Source: TPA_inf: Saccharomyces
Taxonomy: Eukaryota
Assembly (NCBI GenBank): GCA_000146045.2
Contig: BK006941.2
Span: 800,001 to 864,000 of the forward strand
Reading direction: 5' to 3'
Length of the DNA: 64,000 nt
The notes below the pieces were generated by a model. That model saw only the letters and a list, made by a program, of their open reading frames with translations. It was not told the DNA's origin and ran no database searches. Both the position numbers and the translations under genes were made by a program. This document shows positions 10,506 to 57,491 of this stretch, piece by piece (positions within the stretch are counted from its first letter, which is position 1; each line of letters starts with the position of its first letter).

Positions 10506-11446
10506 ACGCCTGATGCGAGCTATACGTTTTGTGCTCACCGTGCACATATGGTGGCTACTTTTCTACTCAAACACGTTTGAAAAACGGCATACGATTAGCT
10601 TACAGATTGAACTCAAAGAAGTCGCAATGGGAGGTGCAGAAGATGACGTGTTACTTAGTTTATAATACAATGTGTTTTATATATCGATTCTTCGTTTATG
10701 CATTTCTGGACGATTGCTTTTCACTGTAAATACGCACTAATATTCATGAATATAAAAAAATGTAACATCATATCTCAATGTTCTTCTCCGTCAGTCAGAT
10801 AGTGGCAAGGCTGTGATAGGACATTCTTAGAACGCCAAGAAAATCAAAAATTTGAACGGTATCTAAATTCATTTGTCGAACCCTTGAAGAAACTCACAGA
10901 GCGGGGTATCTACTATTTTGTTTTCGTTCTTTTGAATCTCCGCTACGTCACATTTTCTACAACCCTCAGGTCCCCTCACCACGAAAATCCAAGATTTGTA
11001 AAATATGAGCCGCGTATTTCTGCAATGGTAGAAACGATAATGTACCTATCGTACAACGATACATTATTTTAGTGCATTATAAGCCGCTTGATTCATGTTG
11101 ATAATTAGCGGCTAAATTGTAGTAGTCATTCAAAATAATCGTACACCTTCATATAGTTATGAAAGGGGTATAAAAGATGAACGCTCGTTGGCCATGTCAA
11201 AGGTGCCTTAAAAATAACAATGCTTGCGGTAGTACGTGTGCAAAGTGTATATTCGCATGAGAGGTGATCGGAAATTGCTTTATCGCCCCACTAATTCTGA
11301 TTCTTATTCAAATATTTATGTCACGTAGCGAGCTTACTTATCCATATATCAAAGGAAATCCAGATATAAACTCAAACTAATTCTTCTGTTTCCACGTAAC
11401 TAGCATTCACATTGTAGTTTTCTAGATTACAGCAATTTATATATAT

Positions 11447-11778
11447 TGTTGGAATAAAAATCAACTATCATCTACTAACTAGTATTTACGTTACTAGTAT
11501 ATTATCATATACGGTGTTAGAAGATGACGCAAATGATGAGAAATAGTCATCTAAATTAGTGGAAGCTGAAACGCAAGGATTGATAATGTAATAGGATCAA
11601 TGAATATTAACATATAAAATGATGATAATAATATTTATAGAATTGTGTAGAATTGCAGATTCCCTTTTATGGATTCCTAAATCCTCGAGGAGAACTTCTA
11701 GTATATCTACATACCTAATATTATTGCCTTATCAAAAATGGAATCCCAACAATTACATCAAAATCCACATTCTCTACA
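11447..11778 (+). repeat. Ty2 5' LTR (delta, 332 bp)
   Basis: Starts TGTTGGAATA and ends ...CACATTCTCTACA, immediately followed by the tRNAiMet primer-binding site TGGTAGCGCC. Confidence 0.9.
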
Positions 11779-13054
11779 TGGTAGCGCCTATGCTTCGGTT
11801 ACTTCTAAGGAAGTCCCATCAAATCAAGATCCGTTAGCCGTTTCAGCTTCCAATTTACCGGAATTTGATAGAGATTCCACTAAGGTTAATTCTCAACAAG
11901 AGACAACACCTGGGACATCAGCTGTTCCAGAGAACCATCATCATGTCTCTCCTCAACCTGCTTCAGTACCACCTCCACAGAATGGACAGTACCAACAGCA
12001 CGGCATGATGACCCCAAACAAAGCTATGGCCTCTAACTGGGCACATTACCAACAACCGTCTATGATGACGTGTTCACATTATCAAACGTCACCTGCGTAT
12101 TATCAACCGGACCCACACTATCCGTTGCCACAGTATATCCCACCACTGAGTACTTCCTCACCTGATCCAATCGATTCACAGAATCAACACTCTGAAGTAC
12201 CTCAAGCTGAGACAAAGGTGAGAAATAACGTCTTACCACCACACACTTTAACATCAGAAGAAAACTTTTCTACATGGGTTAAATTTTACATCAGATTTTT
12301 GAAGAACTCTAATCTCGGTGACATCATTCCAAATGACCAGGGTGAAATCAAAAGTCAAATGACTTATGAAGAACATGCGTATATATACAATACCTTCCAA
12401 GCATTTGCCCCATTTCATTTATTGCCAACATGGGTAAAACAAATTTTAGAAATTAATTATGCTGACATCCTTACAGTCCTTTGTAAAAGTGTGTCCAAAA
12501 TGCAAACTAACAATCAAGAATTAAAGGATTGGATAGCTCTTGCCAACCTTGAGTACGACGGAAGTACATCTGCTGATACATTTGAAATTACAGTCAGTAC
12601 GATCATTCAGAGGCTAAAAGAAAACAATATCAATGTTAGCGACAGATTGGCCTGTCAACTAATACTTAAAGGTCTATCCGGTGACTTCAAATACCTACGT
12701 AATCAATATCGTACCAAAACGAACATGAAACTTTCCCAATTATTCGCTGAAATTCAGTTAATATATGACGAAAATAAAATCATGAATCTAAATAAACCGT
12801 CCCAATACAAACAACACAGCGAATACAAAAATGTTTCTCGCACATCTCCAAACACGACTAACACAAAGGTTACAACTCGTAATTATCATAGAACAAATAG
12901 TTCAAAACCAAGAGCAGCAAAAGCTCACAATATTGCTACATCTAGTAAATTCTCAAGGGTGAACAATGATCACATTAATGAATCAACCGTTTCATCACAA
13001 TACTTAAGCGATGACAACGAACTTAGTCTTAGGCCAGCAACAGAAAGAATCTAA
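11738..13054 (+). CDS. Ty2 Gag (TYA), 438 aa
   Basis: The ATG sits inside the 5' LTR, 293 nt from the LTR start, as in Ty1/Ty2. The protein matches Ty2 TYA. Confidence 0.9.
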
Positions 13055-16000
13055 GCCAACACACACAATAGACTCGAATGACGAACTACCTGATCACCTT
13101 CTTATTGATTCAGGAGCTTCGCAAACGCTTGTCAGATCAGCCCATTATTTACACCATGCAACACCCAATTCTGAAATAAACATAGTCGATGCTCAAAAAC
13201 AAGACATTCCTATAAATGCCATTGGTAATCTTCACTTCAACTTTCAGAACGGCACCAAAACATCAATAAAAGCACTACACACACCAAACATAGCCTATGA
13301 TCTATTAAGTTTGAGTGAGCTGGCTAATCAAAATATTACTGCCTGCTTTACCAGAAACACTTTAGAAAGATCGGATGGTACAGTACTAGCTCCCATAGTC
13401 AAACATGGAGACTTTTACTGGTTATCTAAAAAATACCTAATTCCTTCGCACATTTCAAAGCTAACAATAAACAACGTCAACAAAAGCAAAAGCGTAAATA
13501 AATATCCATATCCGTTAATACATCGAATGCTTGGACATGCTAACTTCCGAAGTATTCAGAAGTCTCTTAAGAAGAATGCAGTTACATATTTGAAGGAATC
13601 GGATATTGAATGGTCTAACGCTAGCACATATCAATGTCCTGACTGTCTAATCGGCAAAAGCACGAAACATAGACATGTCAAAGGATCACGACTAAAGTAC
13701 CAAGAATCATATGAGCCTTTTCAGTACTTGCACACCGATATATTTGGTCCTGTACATCACTTACCGAAAAGTGCACCTTCTTACTTTATATCGTTTACAG
13801 ATGAGAAAACCAGATTCCAATGGGTGTACCCATTACACGACCGTCGTGAAGAATCTATCCTCAATGTTTTTACATCGATATTAGCATTTATTAAGAACCA
13901 ATTCAATGCTCGCGTTCTAGTTATCCAGATGGATCGTGGCTCCGAGTACACTAACAAAACTCTTCATAAGTTCTTTACGAACAGAGGTATTACTGCATGC
14001 TATACAACCACGGCAGATTCTAGAGCACACGGTGTCGCTGAACGATTAAATCGTACTTTATTAAACGATTGTCGCACACTGCTTCATTGCAGTGGTCTAC
14101 CAAATCATCTATGGTTCTCAGCAGTCGAATTTTCTACTATAATCAGAAATTCATTAGTCTCACCAAAAAACGATAAATCTGCAAGACAACATGCAGGTTT
14201 AGCTGGACTGGACATTACTACTATACTACCTTTCGGTCAACCGGTTATAGTTAACAACCATAATCCCGACTCGAAAATACATCCTCGTGGCATTCCAGGT
14301 TACGCCTTACATCCGTCACGAAACTCTTATGGCTATATTATCTATCTTCCATCATTAAAAAAGACAGTAGATACTACCAATTACGTTATATTACAAGACA
14401 AGCAATCCAAATTGGACCAATTCAATTATGATACACTCACCTTTGATGATGATCTCAATCGTTTAACAGCCCATAACCAATCTTTTATTGAACAAAATGA
14501 AACGGAGCAGTCATATGATCAAAATACAGAATCTGATCATGACTATCAATCGGAGATTGAAATAAACTCTGATCCTCTAGTGAACGACTTCTCGTCCCAA
14601 TCAATAAACCCTTTACAATTAGACAAGGAACCAGTCCAAAAAGTACGTGCACCAAAAGAAGTTGATGCCGACATATCTGAATACAATATTCTTCCATCTA
14701 CTATACGATCTCGTACACCCCATATCATTAATAAAGAGAGTACCGAAATGGGTGGTACCGTTGAATCAGATACTACTTCACCTAGACACTCGTCTACCTT
14801 CACTGCACGAAACCAAAACCGACCTGGTAGTACCAATGAGATGATTGATTTGACCTCACAGGATAGAGTTAATTATGGACTTGAAAACATCAAAACTACA
14901 CGTTTGGGTGGTACGGAGGAACCATATATTCAACGAAATAGTGATACAAATATCAAATACAGGACTACAAATAGTACGCCCTCAATAGATGACCGTTCGT
15001 CCAACAGTGAATCCACTACTCCCATCATCTCCATAGAAACAAAGGCTGTATGTGATAATACACCCTCCATTGATACGGATCCGCCAGAATATCGATCTTC
15101 TGACCATGCGACTCCTAATATAATGCCTGACAAATCCTCAAAAAATGTTACGGCTGATTCTATTCTTGACGACCTCCCACTTCCTGACTTAACCCATAAA
15201 TCTCCTACGGACACTTCTGATGTTTCAAAAGATATTCCACACATACACTCTCGTCAGACTAATTCCAGTTTGGGTGGTATGGATGATTCTAATGTTCTGA
15301 CTACTACCAAAAGTAAGAAAAGATCATTAGAAGATAATGAAACTGAAATTGAGGTATCCCGAGACACATGGAATAATAAGAATATGAGAAGTCTGGAACC
15401 ACCAAGATCGAAGAAACGCATAAATTTAATTGCAGCAATAAAAGGAGTGAAATCGATCAAACCAGTTCGAACGACCTTAAGATATGATGAAGCAATTACA
15501 TATAATAAAGACAACAAAGAAAAAGACAGATATGTTGAAGCTTATCATAAAGAAATTAGCCAACTATTGAAAATGAACACTTGGGATACAAACAAATATT
15601 ATGATAGAAATGACATAGATCCTAAAAAAGTAATAAACTCAATGTTTATATTTAACAAGAAACGTGATGGTACACACAAAGCTAGATTTGTTGCAAGAGG
15701 CGACATTCAACACCCCGATACATATGATTCTGATATGCAATCCAATACCGTACATCACTATGCACTGATGACGTCACTGTCAATCGCATTAGACAACGAC
15801 TATTATATCACACAGCTGGACATATCCTCTGCTTACTTATATGCTGATATCAAAGAAGAATTATACATAAGACCTCCACCACATTTAGGTTTGAATGATA
15901 AATTACTACGTTTGAGAAAATCACTCTATGGTTTGAAACAAAGTGGTGCAAACTGGTATGAAACCATTAAATCATATTTAATAAATTGTTGCGACATGCA

Positions 16001-17051
16001 AGAAGTTCGCGGATGGTCATGCGTATTTAAGAATAGTCAAGTAACAATTTGCTTATTCGTTGATGATATGATATTATTCAGCAAAGACTTAAATGCAAAT
16101 AAGAAAATCATAACAACACTCAAGAAACAATACGATACAAAGATAATAAATCTGGGTGAAAGTGATAACGAAATTCAGTACGACATACTTGGATTAGAGA
16201 TCAAATATCAAAGAAGCAAGTACATGAAATTAGGTATGGAAAAATCCTTGACAGAAAAATTACCCAAACTAAACGTACCTTTGAACCCAAAAGGAAAGAA
16301 ACTTAGAGCTCCAGGTCAACCAGGTCATTATATAGACCAGGATGAACTAGAAATAGATGAAGATGAATACAAAGAGAAAGTACATGAAATGCAAAAGTTG
16401 ATTGGTCTAGCTTCATATGTTGGATATAAATTTAGATTTGACTTACTATACTACATCAACACACTTGCTCAACATATACTATTCCCCTCTAGGCAAGTTT
16501 TAGACATGACATATGAGTTAATACAATTCATGTGGGACACTAGAGATAAACAATTAATATGGCACAAAAACAAACCTACCAAGCCAGATAATAAACTAGT
16601 CGCAATAAGCGATGCTTCATATGGTAACCAACCATATTACAAGTCACAAATTGGTAACATTTTCCTACTCAACGGAAAAGTGATTGGAGGAAAGTCGACA
16701 AAGGCTTCGTTAACATGCACTTCAACTACAGAAGCAGAAATACACGCAGTCAGTGAAGCTATTCCGCTATTGAATAACCTCAGTCACCTTGTGCAAGAAC
16801 TTAACAAGAAACCAATTATTAAAGGCTTACTTACTGATAGTAGATCAACGATCAGTATAATTAAGTCTACAAATGAAGAGAAATTTAGAAACAGATTTTT
16901 TGGCACAAAGGCAATGAGACTTAGAGATGAAGTATCAGGTAATAATTTATACGTATACTACATCGAGACCAAGAAGAACATTGCTGATGTGATGACAAAA
17001 CCTCTTCCGATAAAAACATTTAAACTATTAACTAACAAATGGATTCATTAG
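11738..17051 (+). CDS. Ty2 Gag-Pol (TYA-TYB: protease, integrase, RT, RNase H) made by a +1 ribosomal frameshift at CTTAGGC 13028-13034
   Basis: The span is 5314 nt = 3x1771+1, i.e. 1770 aa plus stop plus one skipped nucleotide. The downstream frame (13011..17051) encodes an integrase with the HHCC zinc finger (HRMLGHAN...CPDC) and RT with the YVDDM motif ([11 protein letters not shown]). Confidence 0.85.
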
Positions 17052-17074
17052 ATCTATTACATTATGGGTGGTAT

Positions 17075-17392
17075 GTTGGAATAAAAATCAACTATCATCT
17101 ACTAACTAGTATTTACGTTACTAGTATATTATCATATACGGTGTTAGAAGATGACGCAAATGATGAGAAATAGTCATCTAAATTAGTGGAAGCTGAAACG
17201 CAAGGATTGATAATGTAATAGGATCAATGAATATTAACATATAAAATGATGATAATAATATTTATAGAATTGTGTAGAATTGCAGATTCCCTTTTATGGA
17301 TTCCTAAATCCTCGAGGAGAACTTCTAGTATATCTACATACCTAATATTATTGCCTTATTAAAAATGGAATCCCAACAATTACATAAAAATC
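17075..17392 (+). repeat. Ty2 3' LTR, proximal 318 bp (truncated by the Ty1 insertion; continues at 23312..23324)
   Basis: Begins 23 nt after the TYB stop. It is identical to the 5' LTR apart from 2 substitutions, up to ...CAATTACATAAAAATC. Confidence 0.85.
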
Positions 17393-17724
17393 TGAGATAT
17401 ATGTGGGTAATTAGATAATTGTTGGGATTCCATTGTTGATAAAGGCTATAATATTAGGTATACAGAATATACTAGAAGTTCTCCTCGAGGATATAGGAAT
17501 CCTCAAAATGGAATCTATATTTCTACATACTAATATTACGATTATTCCTCATTCCGTTTTATATGTTTCATTATCCTATTACATTATCAATCCTTGCACT
17601 TCAGCTTCCTCTAACTTCGATGACAGCTTCTCATAACTTATGTCATCATCTTAACACCGTATATGATAATATATTGATAATATAACTATTAGTTGATAGA
17701 CGATAGTGGATTTTTATTCCAACA
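17393..17724 (-). repeat. Ty1 3' LTR (delta, 332 bp)
   Basis: On the + strand it reads TGAGATATATG...TTATTCCAACA. The TYB stop lies 23 nt inside, at 17747. Confidence 0.9.
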
Positions 17725-17746
17725 TACCACCCATAATGTAATAGAT

Positions 17747-20700
17747 CTAATGAATCCATTTGTTTGTTAATAGTTTGAATGTTTTTATCGGAAGAGGTTT
17801 GGTCATTACGTCTGCAATATTCTTTTTGGTTTCGATATAGCATACGTGCAGATGATTTCCTGATACTTCATCTCTCAGTCTCATTGCTTTAGTACCAAAA
17901 AATCTGTTTCTAAATTTCTCTTCATTATTGGATATAATTATACTGATTGTAGATTTACTGTCGGTTAGTAATCCTTTGGTAATTGGTTTCTTGTCGAGTT
18001 CTTGTATCAGGTAACTTAGATTATTTAATAATGGGACAGATTCACTTATTGCGTGTATTTCTGCTTCCGTAGTTGAAGTACATGTTAATGAAGCCTTGGT
18101 GGACTTTCCTCCAATTACTTTTCCATTAAGTAAATATATGTTGCCAATTTGTGATTTATAATACGGTTGGTTACCATACGAGGCATCGCTTATAACAACT
18201 AATTTATTTGTTGGCTTAACAGGTTTGCTTTTGTGCCATATTAATTGCTTATCTCTCGTATTCCATATGAACTGTATCAATTCATATGTCATATCTAACA
18301 CTTGCTTGGACGGAAATAGTATATGTTGTGCAAGTGTGTTGATGTAGTATAATAGGTCAAATCTAAATTTATATCCAACATATGATGCTAGACCTATCAG
18401 CTTTTGCATTTCATGTACCTTCATTTTGTAATCATCTTCTTCTAGCTCTAGTTCTTGCTGGTTTATATAGAGACCTGGTTGGCCTGGGGCACCAAGTTTT
18501 CTTCCGTTTGGATTCAAAGGTACGTTTAATTTGGGTATTTTCTCAGTTAATGAGTTTTCCATACCTAATTTCATGTATTTACCTCTTTGATATTTGATTT
18601 CTAAGCCAAGGATGTCGTATTGAATTTCATCATCGCTTTCACCTAGATTTATAATCTTGGTATCGTATTGCATCTTGAGTTTTGCTATAATTCTTTTATT
18701 CGAATTTAAGTCCTTGCTGAACAATATCATATCATCAACGAATAAGCAAATTGTTACTTGACTATTCTTAAATACGCATGACCATCCACGAACTTCTTCC
18801 ATACCACACTGTTTTATCAGGTATGATTTGATAGTTTCGTACCAGTTCGCTCCACTTTGTTTCAATCCATAAAGTGATTTCTTCAAACGTATCAACTTAT
18901 CATTCATTCCTAAATGTGGTGGAGGTCTTATGTATAATTCTTCTTTGATGTCTGCATACAAATATGCCGAAGATATGTCTAATTGTGTAATATAGTAGTT
19001 ATTGTCTAATGCAAGTGACAGGGATGTCATTAATGCATAGTGATGTACGGTATTGGATTGCATGCCTGAGTCGTAAGTGTCAGGATGCTGAATATCACCT
19101 CTTGCAACAAATCTAGCTTTATGAGTACCGTCACGTTTCCTGTTGAAGATAAACATTGAATTTATTACTCTTTTAGGGTCTATTTCTTTTCTGTCATAAT
19201 ATTTGTCAGTGTCCCAAGTATTCATTTTCAATAGTTGGTTGACTTCTTTGTGGTATGCTTCGATATATTTTTCCTTTTCTTTAATATCTTTATTATAGGT
19301 GATTGCCTCATCGTATCTTAAGGTTGTCCGTATTGGTTTGATTGATTTTACTGCTTTTACAGCTGCAATCAGGTGAATTCGTTTCTTCGATCTCGGAGGT
19401 TCTAAACTACGCATATTCTTAGTATTCCATGTGTCTCGTGATACCTTAATTTCAGTTTCATTATCTTCTAATGATCTTTTCTTACTGTTGATAGTAGTAT
19501 AGGCATTAGAGTCACCAATACCACCCAAACTGGAATTAGTTTGACGAGAATTGATCGGTGGAAGTTCTTTAAAGGAGTCTGATAATTCGGTAGGAGGTTC
19601 TGGAGGCAGATCGGGAAGTGGAAGATCAGCAATTATAGATTCCTCTGTATTCTCCTTAGGACAGGTATCTGACGTTTTGATAGGAACGACGTGGTGTAGT
19701 GAATTACTTTCTGATGAGGAAGTATCGATCGAAGGTGAACGGTGTATAATCCTTTTCTCAGTCTCCTGTTCGCTTGTCTGCGGAACAGTTTTATTATTGG
19801 TACCACCCGTACTGGATATTGGTACGTTTGTATGATTAGTCTCATTGTCACTGTACGAGTCTGAGTGTCTGAAATCTTTAGATTTACTGGCGTACGACGA
19901 CTCATGTGTGTTAGATTGGGACATGGGAGCAAGTAAAGGAACATTTAATTTATGCATACCACCCGAACCGGTACTCTCGATATTGGAAATTTGGGGGGTG
20001 CTAGATCTCTTCTTTGATGGAAGAATATTAGATTCAGATATGTTGGGGTCAACTTCTCTGGGTGCGCGAATATTGGTTTTAGAAACACGTTTCGAATCTT
20101 CAGTATGAGTTGACGGAGGTGTGGAATCGGTTGGACTCACAGCTTTTGAAAGGACATTTCTCGGTTGCTCAGGATGTAGTTCAATGTCGGATTGGAAGTC
20201 ATGGTCAGATTCTATGTTAAGATCATTGGATTCTTGGATCTCATTTGACGCAATGAACGAATGATATGAAGCAGTTAAACGGTTTAAGTCTTCATCGAAA
20301 GTGAGTGCGTCGTAATTGAATTGATCTAATCTGGATTCCTTGCCCTGAAGAATAACATAGTTAGTTGTATCTACTGTCTTCTTTAAGGATGGAAGATAGA
20401 TGATATATCCATAAGAGTTTCGAGACGGATGTAGAGCGTAGCCTGGGATGCCACGAGGATGTATTTTGGAGTTAGGGTTGTGATCATTGACGATAACAGG
20501 TTGACCGAAAGGTAACAAAGTACTGATATCAAGTCCTGCCAAGCCAGCATGTTGTCTTGCAGATTTTTTGCTTTTAGGTGAAGCTAGTGAATTTCTCACA
20601 ATAGTAGAAAATTCGATTGCAGAGAACCATAAATGGTTCGGTAAACCACTACATTGCAGTTGAGTACGGCAGTCATCTAATAAGGTACGGTTCAGCCGTT

Positions 20701-23015
20701 CAGCGACTCCATGTGCTCGGGAATCCGCTGTGGTTGTATAGCATGGAGTTATACCATTTTTTTCAAGGAATTTATGGAGAGTTCTGTTAGTATACTCAGA
20801 ACCACGGTCCATTTGTATAACTAAGACACTGGCCTGAAACTGGTTTTTAATAAAAGCTAGTATCGTAGTAAAAACATCGAGGATAGAGTCCTCGCGACGG
20901 TCGTGTAATGGATAAACCCAACGGAATTTTGTTGTCTCATCAGTAAATGAGATGAAATAGGATGGTGCACTTTTTGGTAGGTTGTGAACTGGACCAAATA
21001 TGTCAGTATGTAGGTATTGAAAGGGTTCGTATGAATTTTGGTATTTTAGTCGTGAACCTTTGATATGTCTGTGTTTGGTGCTTTTGCCGATTAAACAATC
21101 AGGACATTGATAGTCAATAGCACTAGACCAGTCGACATCTGATTCGTTAAAATACGTGATGGTGTTATTTTTAAGTGAGTATCGAATTGTCTGTGCATTG
21201 GCATGCGCAAGCATTCGATGAATGAAAGGATAAGGATATTTGCGTGTACTTTCACTTGTATGGACATTATTGATGGTGGGTACGGAGATATTTGATGGAA
21301 GCAAGTACTTTTTAGATACCCAGTAAAAGTCTCCATATTTCACGATAGGTGCAAGTACAGTGCCGTCAGACCGTTCTAAGACGTTTTTGGTAAAGCATGC
21401 TGTGATATCTACTGCAGCCAATTCATTCAAACTGAGTAAGTCATAGGCTATGTTAGGAGTGTGCAATACCTTTATTGATGTTTTGGTGTTGTCCTGGAAG
21501 TGAAATTGTAGGTCACCAATAGCGTTAATTGGTATATTTCTTTTTTGAGCATCAACTACGTTTATGTCAGGATTAGATGATGCTGAGTGTATGTGATGAG
21601 CAGATCTTATAAGGGTTCGTGATGCTCCTGAATCGAGAAGGAGGTGTCCAGGGAGTTCATCATCAGAATGATTAGTATGATTTACTGTAGATTCAGTAAG
21701 TTTCTGGCCTAAGATGAAGGTCGTGCTTATTGTTCAATTGAATCGGTTCAGTAGTTGATTTACTGATGGAATCGTTGTCCGTGCTGGGAGAGTTATTAGA
21801 TGTGGATACATTGTGAGCCCTGGCTGTTTTCGATTTCGAATTATTTGTTTTTTGAGGATTCCGAGCTATAACTTTGGGTTTGGTTGTATTCGTATAGCTG
21901 CGAGAATCATTCTTCTCATCACTCGGATTTCTCCTGTAATTAGGTTTGCTGTTTCTCGATCCCTGTTGTTCTTCATAAATAGCATGGATATCTAAGAACA
22001 GTTCAGCGACTGTCATATTTAGATGTCGATGACGTGTGTAGCGTAAAAATTTATATTCGCCAGATAGACCTCTCATAATTAATTGGCATGCGACCTTGTT
22101 ATTGATATGAATGCCATTATTGTTCAGTCTGTCGATAATGTTTGTGACTTTTGTTTCAAATGCATCTGCAGGTGTACTGCCATTATATTGCAAATTTGCC
22201 AGGGTCACAATGTCGTTTGCCTCTTGGGTATCAGATTGCATTTTTTCAATACTTTTGGAAAGAATTTTCATGATATCCGTATAATCAACGGATAGGATGT
22301 CTTTGACCCAGGTAGGTAGGAATTGAGAGGGAGCAAATATTTGAAAAGTGTTATACAAGAAGGTGAGTTCATCATCAGTGATCTGACGTACGGGTTTTCC
22401 GTTTACTGTCGGAATAATACCACCGAGATTCGAGTTTTGTAAAAATTTGATGTATGTTTTAACCCAATTTGGAAAGTCATTAGGTGAGGTTAACATTGGT
22501 GGTGGTCTGACATATTTTTTAGTGGATGTCATATCAGAGTCCGCTGAGGATGAATCAGTAAATGTATTACCTGACTCAGGTGATGGAGTGCTCAGAGGCG
22601 TTCCAACTGATGATGGATACTGCGGAAACTGTGATTGTGGCCCAGGTGGAAAGTACATAGGCGACATTTGATAAGGTGTATACGGAATCATAGATGGGTG
22701 TCCGTAAAATGACCAACCAGATGGATTGGCTTGGTTTTGGGTCATCATGCACTGCTGTGGGTACGGCCCATTCTGTGGAGGTGGTACTGAAGCAGGTTGA
22801 GGAGAGGCATGATGGGGGTTCTCTGGAACAGCTGATGAAGCAGGTGTTGTTGTCTGTTGAGAGTTAGCCTTAGTGGAAGCCTTATCATATTCTTGAATTT
22901 TGGAAGCTGAAACGTCTAACGGATCTTGATTTGTGTGGACTTCCTTAGAAGTAACCGAAGCACAGGCGCTACCATGAGATATATGTGGGTAATTAGATAA
23001 TTGTTGGGATTCCAT
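17747..23015 (-). CDS. Ty1 Gag-Pol (TYA-TYB) via +1 frameshift
   Basis: Length arithmetic fits 1755 aa. The ORF track shows the Pol frame open for at least 1239 aa from 21466. I could not verify that the frame is continuous between 21466 and 21713. Confidence 0.75.
21693..23015 (-). CDS. Ty1 Gag (TYA), 440 aa
   Basis: The ORF matches canonical Ty1 TYA. Confidence 0.9.
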
Positions 23016-23306
23016 TGTTGATAAAGGCTATAATATTAGGTATACAGAATATACTAGAAGTTCTCCTCGAGGATATAGGAATCCTCAAAATGGAATCTAT
23101 ATTTCTACATACTAATATTACGATTATTCCTCATTCCGTTTTATATGTTTCATTATCCTATTACATTATCAATCCTTGCACTTCAGCTTCCTCTAACTTC
23201 GATGACAGCTTCTCATAACTTATGTCATCATCTTAACACCGTATATGATAATATATTGATAATATAACTATTAGTTGATAGACGATAGTGGATTTTTATT
23301 CCAACA
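22975..23306 (-). repeat. Ty1 5' LTR (delta, 332 bp), identical to its 3' LTR
   Basis: Same sequence as 17393-17724. The identical 67-aa spurious ORFs at 17433..17636 and 23015..23218 confirm identity over at least 204 nt. Confidence 0.9.
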
Positions 23307-23329
23307 AAATCCACATTCTCTTCATATAT
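23307..23329 (+). repeat. Ty1 target-site duplication AAATC (23307-23311), then the displaced last 13 bp of the Ty2 3' LTR (CACATTCTCTTCA, 23312-23324), then the Ty2 target-site duplication TATAT (23325-23329)
   Basis: AAATC also occurs at 17388-17392, immediately left of the Ty1 LTR. TATAT also occurs at 11442-11446, immediately left of the Ty2 5' LTR. Joining 17392 to 23312 restores a complete Ty2 LTR end. Confidence 0.8.
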
Positions 23330-23481
23330 ACATATATTGGTTGTTGTTACTACTTTAGCTTTTTTCCTCTGTTCGTTTCAAGATCTAGCTTGCAATTATC
23401 CCTCTAGGTAATAACCAGCATAGTTGTCGTCGTTTCATGTGACCTATTCCCCTTTAATTGGATCAATCTTCCAATAAGAGT

Positions 23482-23555
23482 GGTTTCGTGGTCTAGTCGG
23501 TTATGGCATCTGCTTAACACGCAGAACGTCCCCAGTTCGATCCTGGGCGAAATCA
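23482..23555 (+). tRNA. tRNA-Val (anticodon AAC)
   Basis: GGTTTCGTGGTCTAGTCGGTTATGGCATCTGCTTAACACGCAGAACGTCCCCAGTTCGATCCTGGGCGAAATCA. It has an A box, a B box (GGTTCGATCC-type) and a T-run directly downstream. Confidence 0.9.
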
Positions 23556-45280: not shown

Positions 45281-45630
45281 TGTTGTATCTCAGAATGGGA
45301 TACCTCAGTATGACAATACATCATCCTAAACGTTCATAAAACACATATGAAACAACCTTACAGCAAAACGAACAGAATGAGCAACATGAAAATAAAACTC
45401 TGCCTTCCTTAGCTAACCTACTCTAACGTATAAGTATCTGAACAATTGGTTTAGATCCAAGATTCCGCGCTTCCACCATTTAGTATGATCCATATTTTAT
45501 ATAATATATAGGATAAGTAAGATCCCGTGAATCAAGCTGATAAACCGTTTTGACAACTGGTTACTTCCCTAAGACTGTTTATATTAGGATTGTCAAGAAC
45601 CTTGACATTACCCCATTGCATGATGCAATA
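45281..45630 (+). repeat. Solo Ty3 LTR (sigma element), degenerate at its 3' end, ending about 18 bp upstream of tRNA-Gly
   Basis: Begins TGTTGTATCTCAGAATGGGATACCTCAGTATGACAATAC...ACGTTCATAAAACACATATGAAACAACCTTA, which is about 85% identical to the sigma consensus as I remember it. The CTAAGACTGTTTATATTAGGATTGTCAAGA block is also present. The spacing to the tRNA 5' end is the canonical Ty3 integration distance. Possible imperfect 5-bp flanks are TTCTC (45276-45280) and ATCTC (45631-45635). Confidence 0.75.
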
Positions 45631-45648
45631 ATCTCATATAAATAACAA

Positions 45649-45719
45649 GCGCAAGTGGTTTAGTGGTAAAATCCAACGTTGCCATCGTTGGGCCCCCGGT
45701 TCGATTCCGGGCTTGCGCA
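45649..45719 (+). tRNA. tRNA-Gly (anticodon GCC)
   Basis: GCGCAAGTGGTTTAGTGGTAAAATCCAACGTTGCCATCGTTGGGCCCCCGGTTCGATTCCGGGCTTGCGCA. A T-run (TGTTTTTT) lies just downstream. Confidence 0.9.
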
Positions 45720-57377: not shown

Positions 57378-57491
57378 TGGTTGCTAAGAGATTCGAACTC
57401 TTGCATCTTACGATACCTGAGTATTCCCACAGTTAACTGCGGTCAAGATATTTCTTGAATCAGGCGCCTTAGACCGCTCGGCCAAACAACC
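57378..57491 (-). tRNA. tRNA-Leu (anticodon CAA) with a 32-nt intron
   Basis: The reverse complement reads GGTTGTTTGGCCGAGCGGTCTAAGGCGCCTGATTCAAG[AAATATCTTGACCGCAGTTAACTGTGGGAATA]CTCAGGTATCGTAAGATGCAAGAGTTCGAATCTCTTAGCAACCA. A T9 run (A9 on +, 57365-57373) follows the 3' end. Confidence 0.9.

Follow-up and report, generated by a model that had tools for sequence, protein, structure and literature searches.

A Ty1 element nested in the 3' end of a complete Ty2 upstream of a tRNA-Val(AAC) gene on chromosome VII of Saccharomyces cerevisiae

Introduction

Nests of Ty elements beside tRNA genes are textbook biology. In nested LTR-retrotransposons in general, an older element is split by a younger one that carries its own 5-bp duplication, the order of events is derived from LTR divergence, and annotation pipelines rejoin the separated parts as a matter of routine. 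Both Ty1 and Ty2 have been reported to produce 5-bp duplications and to insert mostly less than 200 bp upstream of tRNA genes. Full-length Ty elements can also form inverted pairs. Such pairs can act as fragile sites, as with the two inverted Ty1 elements at one rearranging locus on chromosome III (Lemoine et al. 2005, as cited in a 2025 preprint). On chromosome VII, no inverted repeat of the yeast genome is said to be longer than the YGRWTy2-2/YGRCTy1-3 pair. In the 2025 preprint, this pair is a hotspot at which chromosome VII deletions end, and no excess of allelic recombination endpoints was seen at it under normal growth.

The DNA analysed here, referred to as the window, is a stretch of 64,000 nucleotides from chromosome VII of S. 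cerevisiae S288C (about 800-864 kb), and its two elements are identical to YGRWTy2-2 and YGRCTy1-3 in boundaries and sequence. We regard it as almost certain that the locus consists of a complete Ty2 upstream of a tRNA gene with a later Ty1 inside the Ty2 end. It resembles other nested LTR-retrotransposons in the split older element, the separate 5-bp duplication of the younger one, and the LTR divergence, but differs from them in that the host Ty2 is full-length and still coding and is broken at a distance of 13 nt from its end. Because this distance is so short, Ty2 and Ty1 look merely adjacent. With the chromosome III pair the locus shares two full-length inverted Ty elements at one rearranging site. 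In contrast to that pair, the chromosome VII pair is composed of a Ty2 and a Ty1 with 73% identity, which are arranged tail-to-tail without a spacer.

Both elements are already known and catalogued in the reference genome, and there is nothing unusual about their pattern. Accordingly, the significance is small and lies mainly in a tidier annotation of the Ty2 as a split element. Beyond this, the nesting formed the spacer-less 5.9-kb inverted Ty pair that others have already linked to chromosome VII rearrangements.

The interrupted Ty2 element

The boundaries and coding frames of the Ty2 element were read directly from the plus strand and comprise the following features.

11442-11446, no strand: left copy of the Ty2 target-site duplication, TATAT; read directly, single copy in empty alleles
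11447-11778, plus strand: Ty2 5' LTR, 332 nt, TGTTGG...CTCTACA, with TG...CA ends; matches the LTR at 811452-811783 of Carr et al.
11738-13054, plus strand: TYA (Gag) frame, 438 aa; Pfam TYA, E = 3e-203; exact match to S288C Ty2 Gag
11779-11788, plus strand: primer-binding site TGGTAGCGCC, read directly
13011-17051, plus strand: TYB (Pol) frame; Pfam Pol_BBD, gag_pre-integrs, rve, SH3_retrovirus, and RVT_2
13028-13034, plus strand: +1 frameshift heptamer CTTAGGC at element position 1582, leading to a 1770-aa Gag-Pol
17066-17073, plus strand: polypurine tract GGGTGGTA, directly 5' of the 3' LTR
17074-17392, plus strand: interrupted 3' LTR, LTR positions 1-319; matches the LTR at 817079-817397 of Carr et al.
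23312-23324, plus strand: detached end of the 3' LTR, 13 nt, LTR positions 320-332, CACATTCTCTTCA
23325-23329, no strand: right copy of the Ty2 target-site duplication, TATAT; compared with empty sites

The primer-binding site presumably pairs with initiator tRNA-Met, as is established for Ty1 and Ty2. In the Pol frame, the rve domain (residues 235-335) precedes RVT_2 (residues 872-1046), which corresponds to the copia-type order with integrase before reverse transcriptase. The assignment to Ty2, proposed by the initial annotation, is borne out by the Gag protein (DAA08254.1), which is identical residue for residue to the S288C protein named Ty2 Gag, by the length of Gag-Pol and by the reference annotation as YGRWTy2-2. 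The initial annotation had placed the interrupted 3' LTR at 17075-17392. Its end at 17392, where the LTR reads ...CAATTACATAAAAATC, is correct, while its start has to be moved to 17074, directly after the polypurine tract.

In Files S2 and S3 of Carr et al. (2012), YGRWTy2-2 is located at 811452-817397 and YGRCTy1-3 at 817398-823311. These coordinates are obtained from those of the window by a constant offset of 800,005, which is exact for both elements. The detached 13-nt LTR end is absent from that annotation, in which the Ty2 record stops at the boundary of the Ty1, and the Ty2 therefore appears truncated although it is in fact split.

The nested Ty1 element

The Ty1 element occupies the minus strand directly behind the interrupted LTR, with the following features.

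17388-17392 and 23307-23311, no strand: left and right copies of the Ty1 target-site duplication, AAATC; the left copy forms the last 5 nt of the Ty2 LTR piece
17393-17724, minus strand: Ty1 3' LTR, 332 nt, 100% identity to the 5' LTR
17747-21709, minus strand: TYB (Pol) frame; Pfam Pol_BBD, rve, SH3_retrovirus, and RVT_2; 1755-aa Gag-Pol
21693-23015, minus strand: TYA (Gag) frame, 440 aa; Pfam TYA, E = 9.6e-235; exact match to S288C Ty1 Gag
21707-21713, minus strand: frameshift heptamer CTTAGGC
22965-22974, minus strand: primer-binding site, GGCGCTACCA when read as plus strand, adjoining the 5' LTR
22975-23306, minus strand: Ty1 5' LTR, 332 nt

The element at 17393-23306 is thus complete, as had been claimed. 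It spans 5914 bp, its plus strand reads TGAGATATATG...TTATTCCAACA, and its Gag (DAA08256.1, two accession numbers away from the Ty2 Gag) is identical to S288C proteins named Ty1 Gag. Its reading frames, like those of the Ty2, are intact, and so are its primer-binding site and polypurine tract, and the two LTRs are identical. Its domains likewise follow the copia-type order. These LTRs share 82% identity with the Ty2 LTR and have a Ty1-type terminus, ...CACATATATCTCA. The right copy of AAATC repeats positions 315-319 of the Ty2 LTR. This duplication and the TATAT duplication of the Ty2 could both be read directly at the sites first assigned to them.

Continuity of the split LTR

Joining 17074-17392 to 23312-23324 yields an LTR of 332 nt that aligns without gaps to the 332-nt Ty2 5' LTR. 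The 13 nt behind the Ty1 are therefore the missing end of the Ty2 LTR, as first suspected, and the alignment contains exactly 3 mismatches where about 3 had been predicted. The rejoined Ty2 (11447-17392 plus 23312-23324) comprises 5959 bp, and its LTRs have the ends TGTTGG...CTCTACA and TGTTGG...CTCTTCA, respectively. The detached 13-mer corresponds to the end of a Ty2-type LTR and not to that of a Ty1-type LTR. The match of the split LTR is far above chance: with up to 2 mismatches allowed, the 18-mer AAATCCACATTCTCTTCA has just two occurrences, one at 23307-23324 and the other where the 5' LTR ends, against 0.01 expected from shuffled sequences.

The three differences between the Ty2 LTRs (5'/3') are located at positions 287 (C/T), 313 (C/A), and 330 (A/T). 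All of them fall within the last 46 nt of the LTR and lie no more than 32 nt from the Ty1 insertion point. The variants T287 and T330 are also present in other Ty2 LTRs. The differences may reflect recombination instead of age, which weakens the argument from the LTR clock. A313, which is located 6 nt from the Ty1 junction, alone is absent from the other Ty2-type LTRs compared. A further reading, with low probability, is that error-prone repair or local conversion accompanied integration of the Ty1 and left the differences behind as a scar, in place of ordinary drift.

The clustering of these differences, two of them common to other Ty2 LTRs, has the look of a patchwork and would also fit a different origin of the Ty2, in which a solo LTR of Ty2 type was already present at TATAT and underwent recombination with a Ty2 cDNA or another Ty2 copy before the Ty1 inserted. 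The nesting order would be the same, but the older LTR would then account for the TATAT duplication. Carr et al. have indeed reported that copies of the Ty2 LTR recombine. Such differences can, however, also arise when mixed RNA templates are reverse transcribed or when gene conversion follows later, and a solo Ty2-type LTR at TATAT was present in none of the assemblies examined, in which nearby solo LTRs occupy other positions. This origin is accordingly considered improbable, and direct integration of the Ty2 is preferred.

Order of insertion and proposed mechanism

Structure and LTR divergence support an order in which the Ty2 arrived first and the Ty1 later, in agreement with the initial annotation. 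Since the Ty2 LTR is interrupted and a duplicated 5-bp segment of this LTR borders the Ty1 on both sides, the Ty1 is the second element. The LTR pairs point in the same direction, with 0 differences in the Ty1 pair (332/332 identical) versus 3/332 in the Ty2 pair.

In the proposed sequence of events, a Ty2 cDNA would first have integrated in plus orientation into TATAT, 153-157 bp upstream of the tRNA-Val(AAC) gene, whereby TATAT was duplicated. Subsequently, a Ty1 cDNA of opposite orientation would have entered the Ty2 3' LTR at AAATC (LTR positions 315-319). This second step would have duplicated AAATC and left the terminal 13 nt of the Ty2 LTR stranded beyond the Ty1. From established Ty biology, both integrations would be expected to depend on Ty integrase, with chromatin at RNA polymerase III genes as the guide. 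The outcome is an 11.9-kb tail-to-tail inverted Ty2/Ty1 pair without a spacer. As the break lies in U5 of the 3' LTR and thus outside the Ty2 genomic RNA, the Ty2 has, by the same established biology, probably retained its ability to transpose.

Gene conversion between the two neighbours was also tested. Their comparison gave an overall identity of 73% with a longest identical run of 65 nt and revealed no tract of near-identity, so nothing suggests a later exchange between the Ty2 and the Ty1.

The tRNA-Val(AAC) gene as integration target

The element pair is followed by a tRNA gene on the plus strand.

23482-23555, plus strand: tRNA-Val(AAC) gene; ARAGORN; Rfam tRNA, 53.1 bits

The gene starts 152 bp from the empty-site junction, and the AAATC target is located about 170 bp upstream of it. 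Such genes are classic Ty targets, and this one is likely the RNA polymerase III target that attracted the insertions. Across the assemblies examined, at least nine independent Ty insertions were detected at this site. In one assembly (L028), a further nest is found at this tRNA gene, a Ty1-type LTR that splits a Ty3 LTR. A Ty3 LTR that is annotated near a tRNA-Gly gene showed no match to the consensus terminus used for comparison.

The site in other strains

The locus was compared with 29 other S. cerevisiae chromosome VII assemblies, a non-random sample made up of the longest contigs in which three flanking proteins have their S288C alleles. No element occupies the site in 25 of the 29, and the predicted empty site, ...AGCAATTTATATATAT joined directly to ACATATATTGG..., occurs verbatim in 20 of the 29. 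The strain comparison proposed earlier thus recovered the empty allele, while the second allele it envisaged, a Ty2 alone with the native right flank, was not found among the 29 assemblies, for which three sets of loci were searched. For this reason the order of insertion is based on structure and LTR divergence rather than on an observed intermediate.

The missing Ty2-only allele would also be compatible with a single event, in which a Ty1 integrated into free Ty2 cDNA and the 11.9-kb composite then entered the chromosome at once via the Ty2 LTR ends, since the S288C sequence taken by itself would be the same after two sequential insertions. We know of no precedent for integration of such a composite Ty1-in-Ty2 cDNA. 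Furthermore, identical Ty1 LTRs beside three differences between the Ty2 LTRs fit events that were apart in time, and with at least nine independent insertions at the site, sequential hits are to be expected. A composite is therefore a highly implausible source of the nest, and two successive integrations remain the favoured explanation.

The junctions are shared with other assemblies. In L013, which has the right junction in common with S288C, CACATTCTCTTCA directly precedes TATAT followed by ACATATATTGG, and the junction between truncated Ty2 LTR and Ty1 is present in the independent assembly L025. This bears on the possibility that the arrangement arose with no integration of the Ty1 into the LTR, either as an assembly artefact or because Ty copies from different loci underwent homologous recombination or gene conversion. 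Non-allelic recombination events that end in this pair are documented, and some laboratory-strain assemblies contain extra chromosome III DNA within the Ty2. Recombination between dispersed copies parts an element from one of its flanks and destroys matching duplications, however, whereas here both 5-bp repeats are perfect and the two pieces of the LTR fit together exactly. Together with the same junctions in independent assemblies and the lack of an exchanged tract between Ty2 and Ty1, this leaves such an origin hardly any probability. Recognition of the nest instead shows that ordinary integration brought in both elements and that no flanks have been swapped with other Ty copies since.

Two assemblies, L004 and L005, were considered as Ty2-only alleles and rejected, as the complete 3' LTR in them runs into chromosome III-like DNA. 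The full Ty2 3' LTR found at the site in L004, L005, and L025 is due to an inserted chromosome III segment, and in L025 the junction between truncated LTR and Ty1 follows downstream.

A Ty1 without a Ty2 at this locus, which the initial annotation had named as evidence against the nest, is present in L009. It was rejected as a counter-example. Its location 46-50 bp away and its own GTTTC duplication mark it as a separate, independent insertion, and the condition as originally worded needs tightening.

Additional LEU2 copies on chromosome VII

Some laboratory-strain assemblies carry an extra LEU2 on chromosome VII that ends exactly at BglII sites inside the Ty2. LEU2 on a BglII fragment is commonly used as a marker in cloning. 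Because of these exact boundaries, the copy may have been left over from engineered DNA and not be the result of a natural Ty-mediated translocation. Taken jointly with the separate reading of the Ty2 LTR differences as a scar of repair or conversion, this is regarded as rather unlikely. The LEU2-carrying assemblies fit the published description of CEN.PK113-7D and presumably represent this strain.

Structure of the nested insertion

A plus-strand Ty2 is interrupted 13 nt before the end of its 3' LTR by a complete minus-strand Ty1, and the 5-bp target-site duplications of both insertions can be recovered. The features are listed below in window coordinates.

Features of the Ty2/Ty1 nest
11442-11446, no strand: left target-site duplication of Ty2, TATAT (junction read directly, script check)
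11447-11778, + strand: Ty2 5' LTR (junction read directly, script check)
directly after 11778, + strand: Ty2 primer-binding site TGGTAGCGCC, following the 5' LTR (read directly)
directly before 17074, + strand: Ty2 polypurine tract GGGTGGTA (read directly)
17074-17392, + strand: Ty2 3' LTR, ending ...ACATAAAAATC (read directly, script check)
17393-23306, - strand: complete Ty1, TGAGATATATG...TTATTCCAACA as read on the plus strand (read directly)
23307-23311, no strand: right target-site duplication of Ty1, AAATC (read directly)
23312-23324, + strand: 13-nt end of the Ty2 LTR, CACATTCTCTTCA (read directly)
23325-23329, no strand: right target-site duplication of Ty2, TATAT (read directly)

When 17074-17392 and 23312-23324 are joined, the resulting sequence has exactly 332 nt. 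The alignment to the 5' LTR that the initial annotation had proposed as a check was run by script; it is gapless over the full 332 nt, and the two LTRs differ at three LTR positions, 287, 313, and 330 (window 17360, 17386, and 23322). The start of the 3' LTR, previously placed at 17075, is corrected to 17074, directly after the polypurine tract. The 13-mer at 23312-23324 aligns to the Ty2 LTR terminus and is a Ty2-type LTR end, not a Ty1-type end. The 18-mer AAATCCACATTCTCTTCA, searched with up to two mismatches, is found only at the end of the 5' LTR and at 23307-23324, with 0.01 occurrences expected from shuffled sequences. Both LTR pairs were also recovered independently by a repeat finder. 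The split Ty2 LTR, the nested Ty1, and both duplications, as originally proposed, are thus borne out by direct reading of the junctions, the script check, and the 18-mer search.

In Ty1 and Ty2 LTRs, the R region ends near position 297, and the U5 region of the 3' LTR is absent from the genomic RNA. The break at LTR position 319/320 lies within U5 of the Ty2 3' LTR. Its location in this untranscribed part suggests that the Ty2 could still produce a complete RNA.

Identity and coding capacity of the elements

The plus-strand element (5959 bp) encodes a Gag of 438 aa and a Gag-Pol of 1770 aa, and the minus-strand element (5914 bp) a Gag of 440 aa and a Gag-Pol of 1755 aa, in both cases via a +1 frameshift at CTTAGGC. 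Both Pol frames show the copia-type arrangement, with integrase before reverse transcriptase, and the Gag proteins of both elements match the Ty capsid family. In an exact-sequence look-up, the Gag proteins were identical to the Ty2 Gag and Ty1 Gag of S. cerevisiae S288C, respectively, whose accession numbers (DAA08254.1 and DAA08256.1) differ by two. In the supplementary annotation of Carr et al. 2012, YGRWTy2-2 (TY2) is listed at chrVII 811452-817397, with LTRs at 811452-811783 and 817079-817397, and YGRCTy1-3 (TY1) at chrVII 817398-823311. As every boundary equals the window coordinate plus 800,005, both elements are already catalogued and the window represents the S288C chromosome VII reference at about 800-864 kb. 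The assignment as Ty2 (+) and Ty1 (-) is confirmed by these coordinates and the exact Gag matches. In contrast to the structure described here, YGRWTy2-2 stops at the Ty1 boundary and the detached 13 nt are unlisted; this LTR remnant is the sole detail possibly missing from the existing annotation.

Order of insertions

The Ty2 was in place first, and the Ty1 then entered its LTR. This order, already proposed in the initial annotation, is supported by the fact that the interrupted sequence is a Ty2 LTR and that the duplicated 5 bp around the Ty1 are also derived from this LTR. LTR divergence agrees with it, as the Ty1 LTR pair is identical (332/332) and the Ty2 pair differs at 3 of 332 positions. 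One-step integration of a Ty2 cDNA with the Ty1 already inside it is extremely improbable.

All three Ty2 LTR differences are located in the last 46 nt, close to the Ty1 junction. T287 and T330 are also present in other Ty2-type LTRs compared, while A313, which lies 6 nt from the junction, was found among these LTRs only in the 3' LTR of the window and in the matching LTR of the L025 locus (see below). Because of this clustering and the sharing of T287 and T330, the count of three mismatches is not a simple clock. The same observations are in favor of the possibility that the end of the 3' LTR is a patchwork produced by recombination or template switching.

Since both duplications are perfect, neither element has swapped flanks with another Ty copy since its insertion. 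There is also no conversion between the neighboring elements, whose global alignment shows 73% identity with a longest identical run of 65 nt.

The target region upstream of tRNA-Val(AAC)

A tRNA-Val(AAC) gene was identified at 23482-23555 on the plus strand by ARAGORN and scored 53.1 bits with Rfam in a 251-bp slice. The empty-site junction is located 152 bp upstream of this gene, which places the Ty2 target TATAT at -157 to -153; the Ty1 target within the Ty2 LTR is about 170 bp upstream. For Ty1 and Ty2, 5-bp duplications have been reported, and most of their insertions are reported to lie no more than 200 bp upstream of a tRNA gene. Within about 150 bp upstream of tRNA-Val(AAC) (window 23330-23481 and the corresponding positions elsewhere), S288C, with its two events, and the 29 assemblies compared have at least nine independent Ty1, Ty2, and Ty3 insertions, which differ from one another in position and duplication. 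This region is an insertion hot spot, in which nesting is expected.

Occupancy of the TATAT site in other strains

Three proteins encoded in the flanks within the window served as exact-match baits and retrieved 30 S. cerevisiae loci (L007 and L030 being the same), which belong to 29 distinct assemblies of chromosome VII and were compared with the flanks and elements of the window. The predicted empty-site string, ...AGCAATTTATATATAT joined directly to ACATATATTGG..., is present exactly in 20 of the 29 assemblies (L001, L002, L006, L008-L012, L014-L020, L022, L024, and L026-L028), as anticipated. The TATAT site itself is unoccupied in 25 of 29.

State of the TATAT site in 29 assemblies
Contiguous flanks, exact string, no insertion in the ~150 bp to the tRNA: 17 assemblies (L001, L006, L008, L010-L012, L014-L020, L022, L024, L026, L027)
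Contiguous flanks, string with one SNP: 2 assemblies (L023, L029)
Unoccupied, other Ty insertion nearby: 6 assemblies (L002, L003, L007 (= L030), L009, L021, L028)
Occupied: 4 assemblies (L004, L005, L013, L025)

Other Ty insertions near the unoccupied site
L002: solo Ty2-type LTR, CAATT duplicated, +63 to +67
L003: two minus-strand Ty2, one 2 bp away with a TATAC duplication, the other ~36 bp away
L007: solo Ty1-type LTR, CATAT duplicated
L009: full Ty1, minus strand, GTTTC duplicated, +46 to +50; reverse-complement positions 12869-18788
L021: Ty3 LTR 16 bp from the tRNA
L028: Ty3 LTR split by a Ty1-type LTR, a second nested case

Within this group, the exact string is kept in L002, L009, and L028, and L021 is more diverged. 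A Ty1 without the Ty2 at this locus had been named as evidence against the nest, and only L009 superficially fits this description. Its Ty1 is very similar to that of the window (LTRs 100%, internal region 99.3% identical). It was rejected as a counter-example, as it has a different position and its own GTTTC duplication, and it is a separate, independent insertion. A clean Ty2-only allele, which had also been predicted, was found in none of the 29 assemblies. Among the occupied loci, L013 belongs to a masked, S288C-like assembly and keeps ...CAAAATCCACATTCTCTTCATATAT joined to ACATATATTGG.

In File S2 of Carr et al. 2012, both elements are scored 'Fixed', from only 2 and 9 scorable strains, although both are absent from 25 of the 29 assemblies. 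The published label reflects sparse data at this locus.

A LEU2-type insertion within the Ty2

The same Ty2 occupies TATAT in L004, L005, and L025, and in the latter two its internal region is 100% identical to that of the window. The whole structure is visible in L025, whose locus extends far enough.

Order of segments in L025
1: Ty2 with a full 332-nt LTR (T287, C313, T330)
2: 2521 bp chromosome III-like sequence: AAATCAATTG..., tRNA-Leu-like sequence, 364-aa isopropylmalate-dehydrogenase-type gene, partial aminotransferase class V gene
3: AGATCTATTACATTATGGGTGGTA
4: Ty2 LTR positions 1-319, identical to the 3' LTR of the window
5: minus-strand Ty1

These three laboratory-strain assemblies have a 2853-bp unit inside the Ty2, which comprises the full Ty2 LTR, LEU2 with the tRNA-Leu-like sequence, and a part of NFS1. 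The region with this unit and the sequence that follows it spans 16824-20279 in L025 and lies within reverse-complement positions 12819-20792 in L004 and L005. The three loci fit the description by Salazar et al. 2017 of CEN.PK113-7D, in which chromosome VII has a second LEU2 and part of NFS1 between two Ty elements, a copy ascribed there to a Ty-homology translocation. The edges of the duplicated unit are the only two BglII sites (AGATCT) of the stretch, at 16824 and 19677 in L025. These exact BglII-to-BglII boundaries suggest that the unit is an inserted restriction fragment of engineered origin and not the product of natural Ty-mediated translocation; alternatively, the junction may have formed through 6 bp of microhomology. 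Beyond the unit, the truncated LTR/Ty1 junction is retained, as shown in L025. The nest is thus older than the LEU2 insertion.

Known context of the locus

The Ty2 3' LTR (319 nt) and the Ty1 3' LTR (332 nt) abut at 17074-17724 in inverted orientation, without a spacer and with 82% identity, and form the center of a 5.9-kb imperfect palindrome. In the literature, no inverted repeat of the yeast genome is given as longer than this pair, and in one reporter strain the pair was the principal region of endpoints (36 of 43) for deletions in the right arm of chromosome VII. Nested Ty fragments are routinely rejoined by annotation pipelines. The nest is an already known feature of the reference genome with a well-known mechanism.

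Just left of the Ty2, Carr et al. 2012 list a solo Ty4 LTR fragment (window about 11096-11233). A Ty3 LTR terminus gave no match in the window; Carr et al. 2012 list the Ty3 LTR YGRWsigma7 at window 45281-45630, with its end 19 bp ahead of tRNA-Gly(GCC), which is at 45649. The tRNA-Val gene found by ARAGORN was missed by a whole-window Rfam scan at the gathering threshold, and a 114-nt, probably intron-containing tRNA (57378-57491, minus strand) missed by ARAGORN was found by Rfam.
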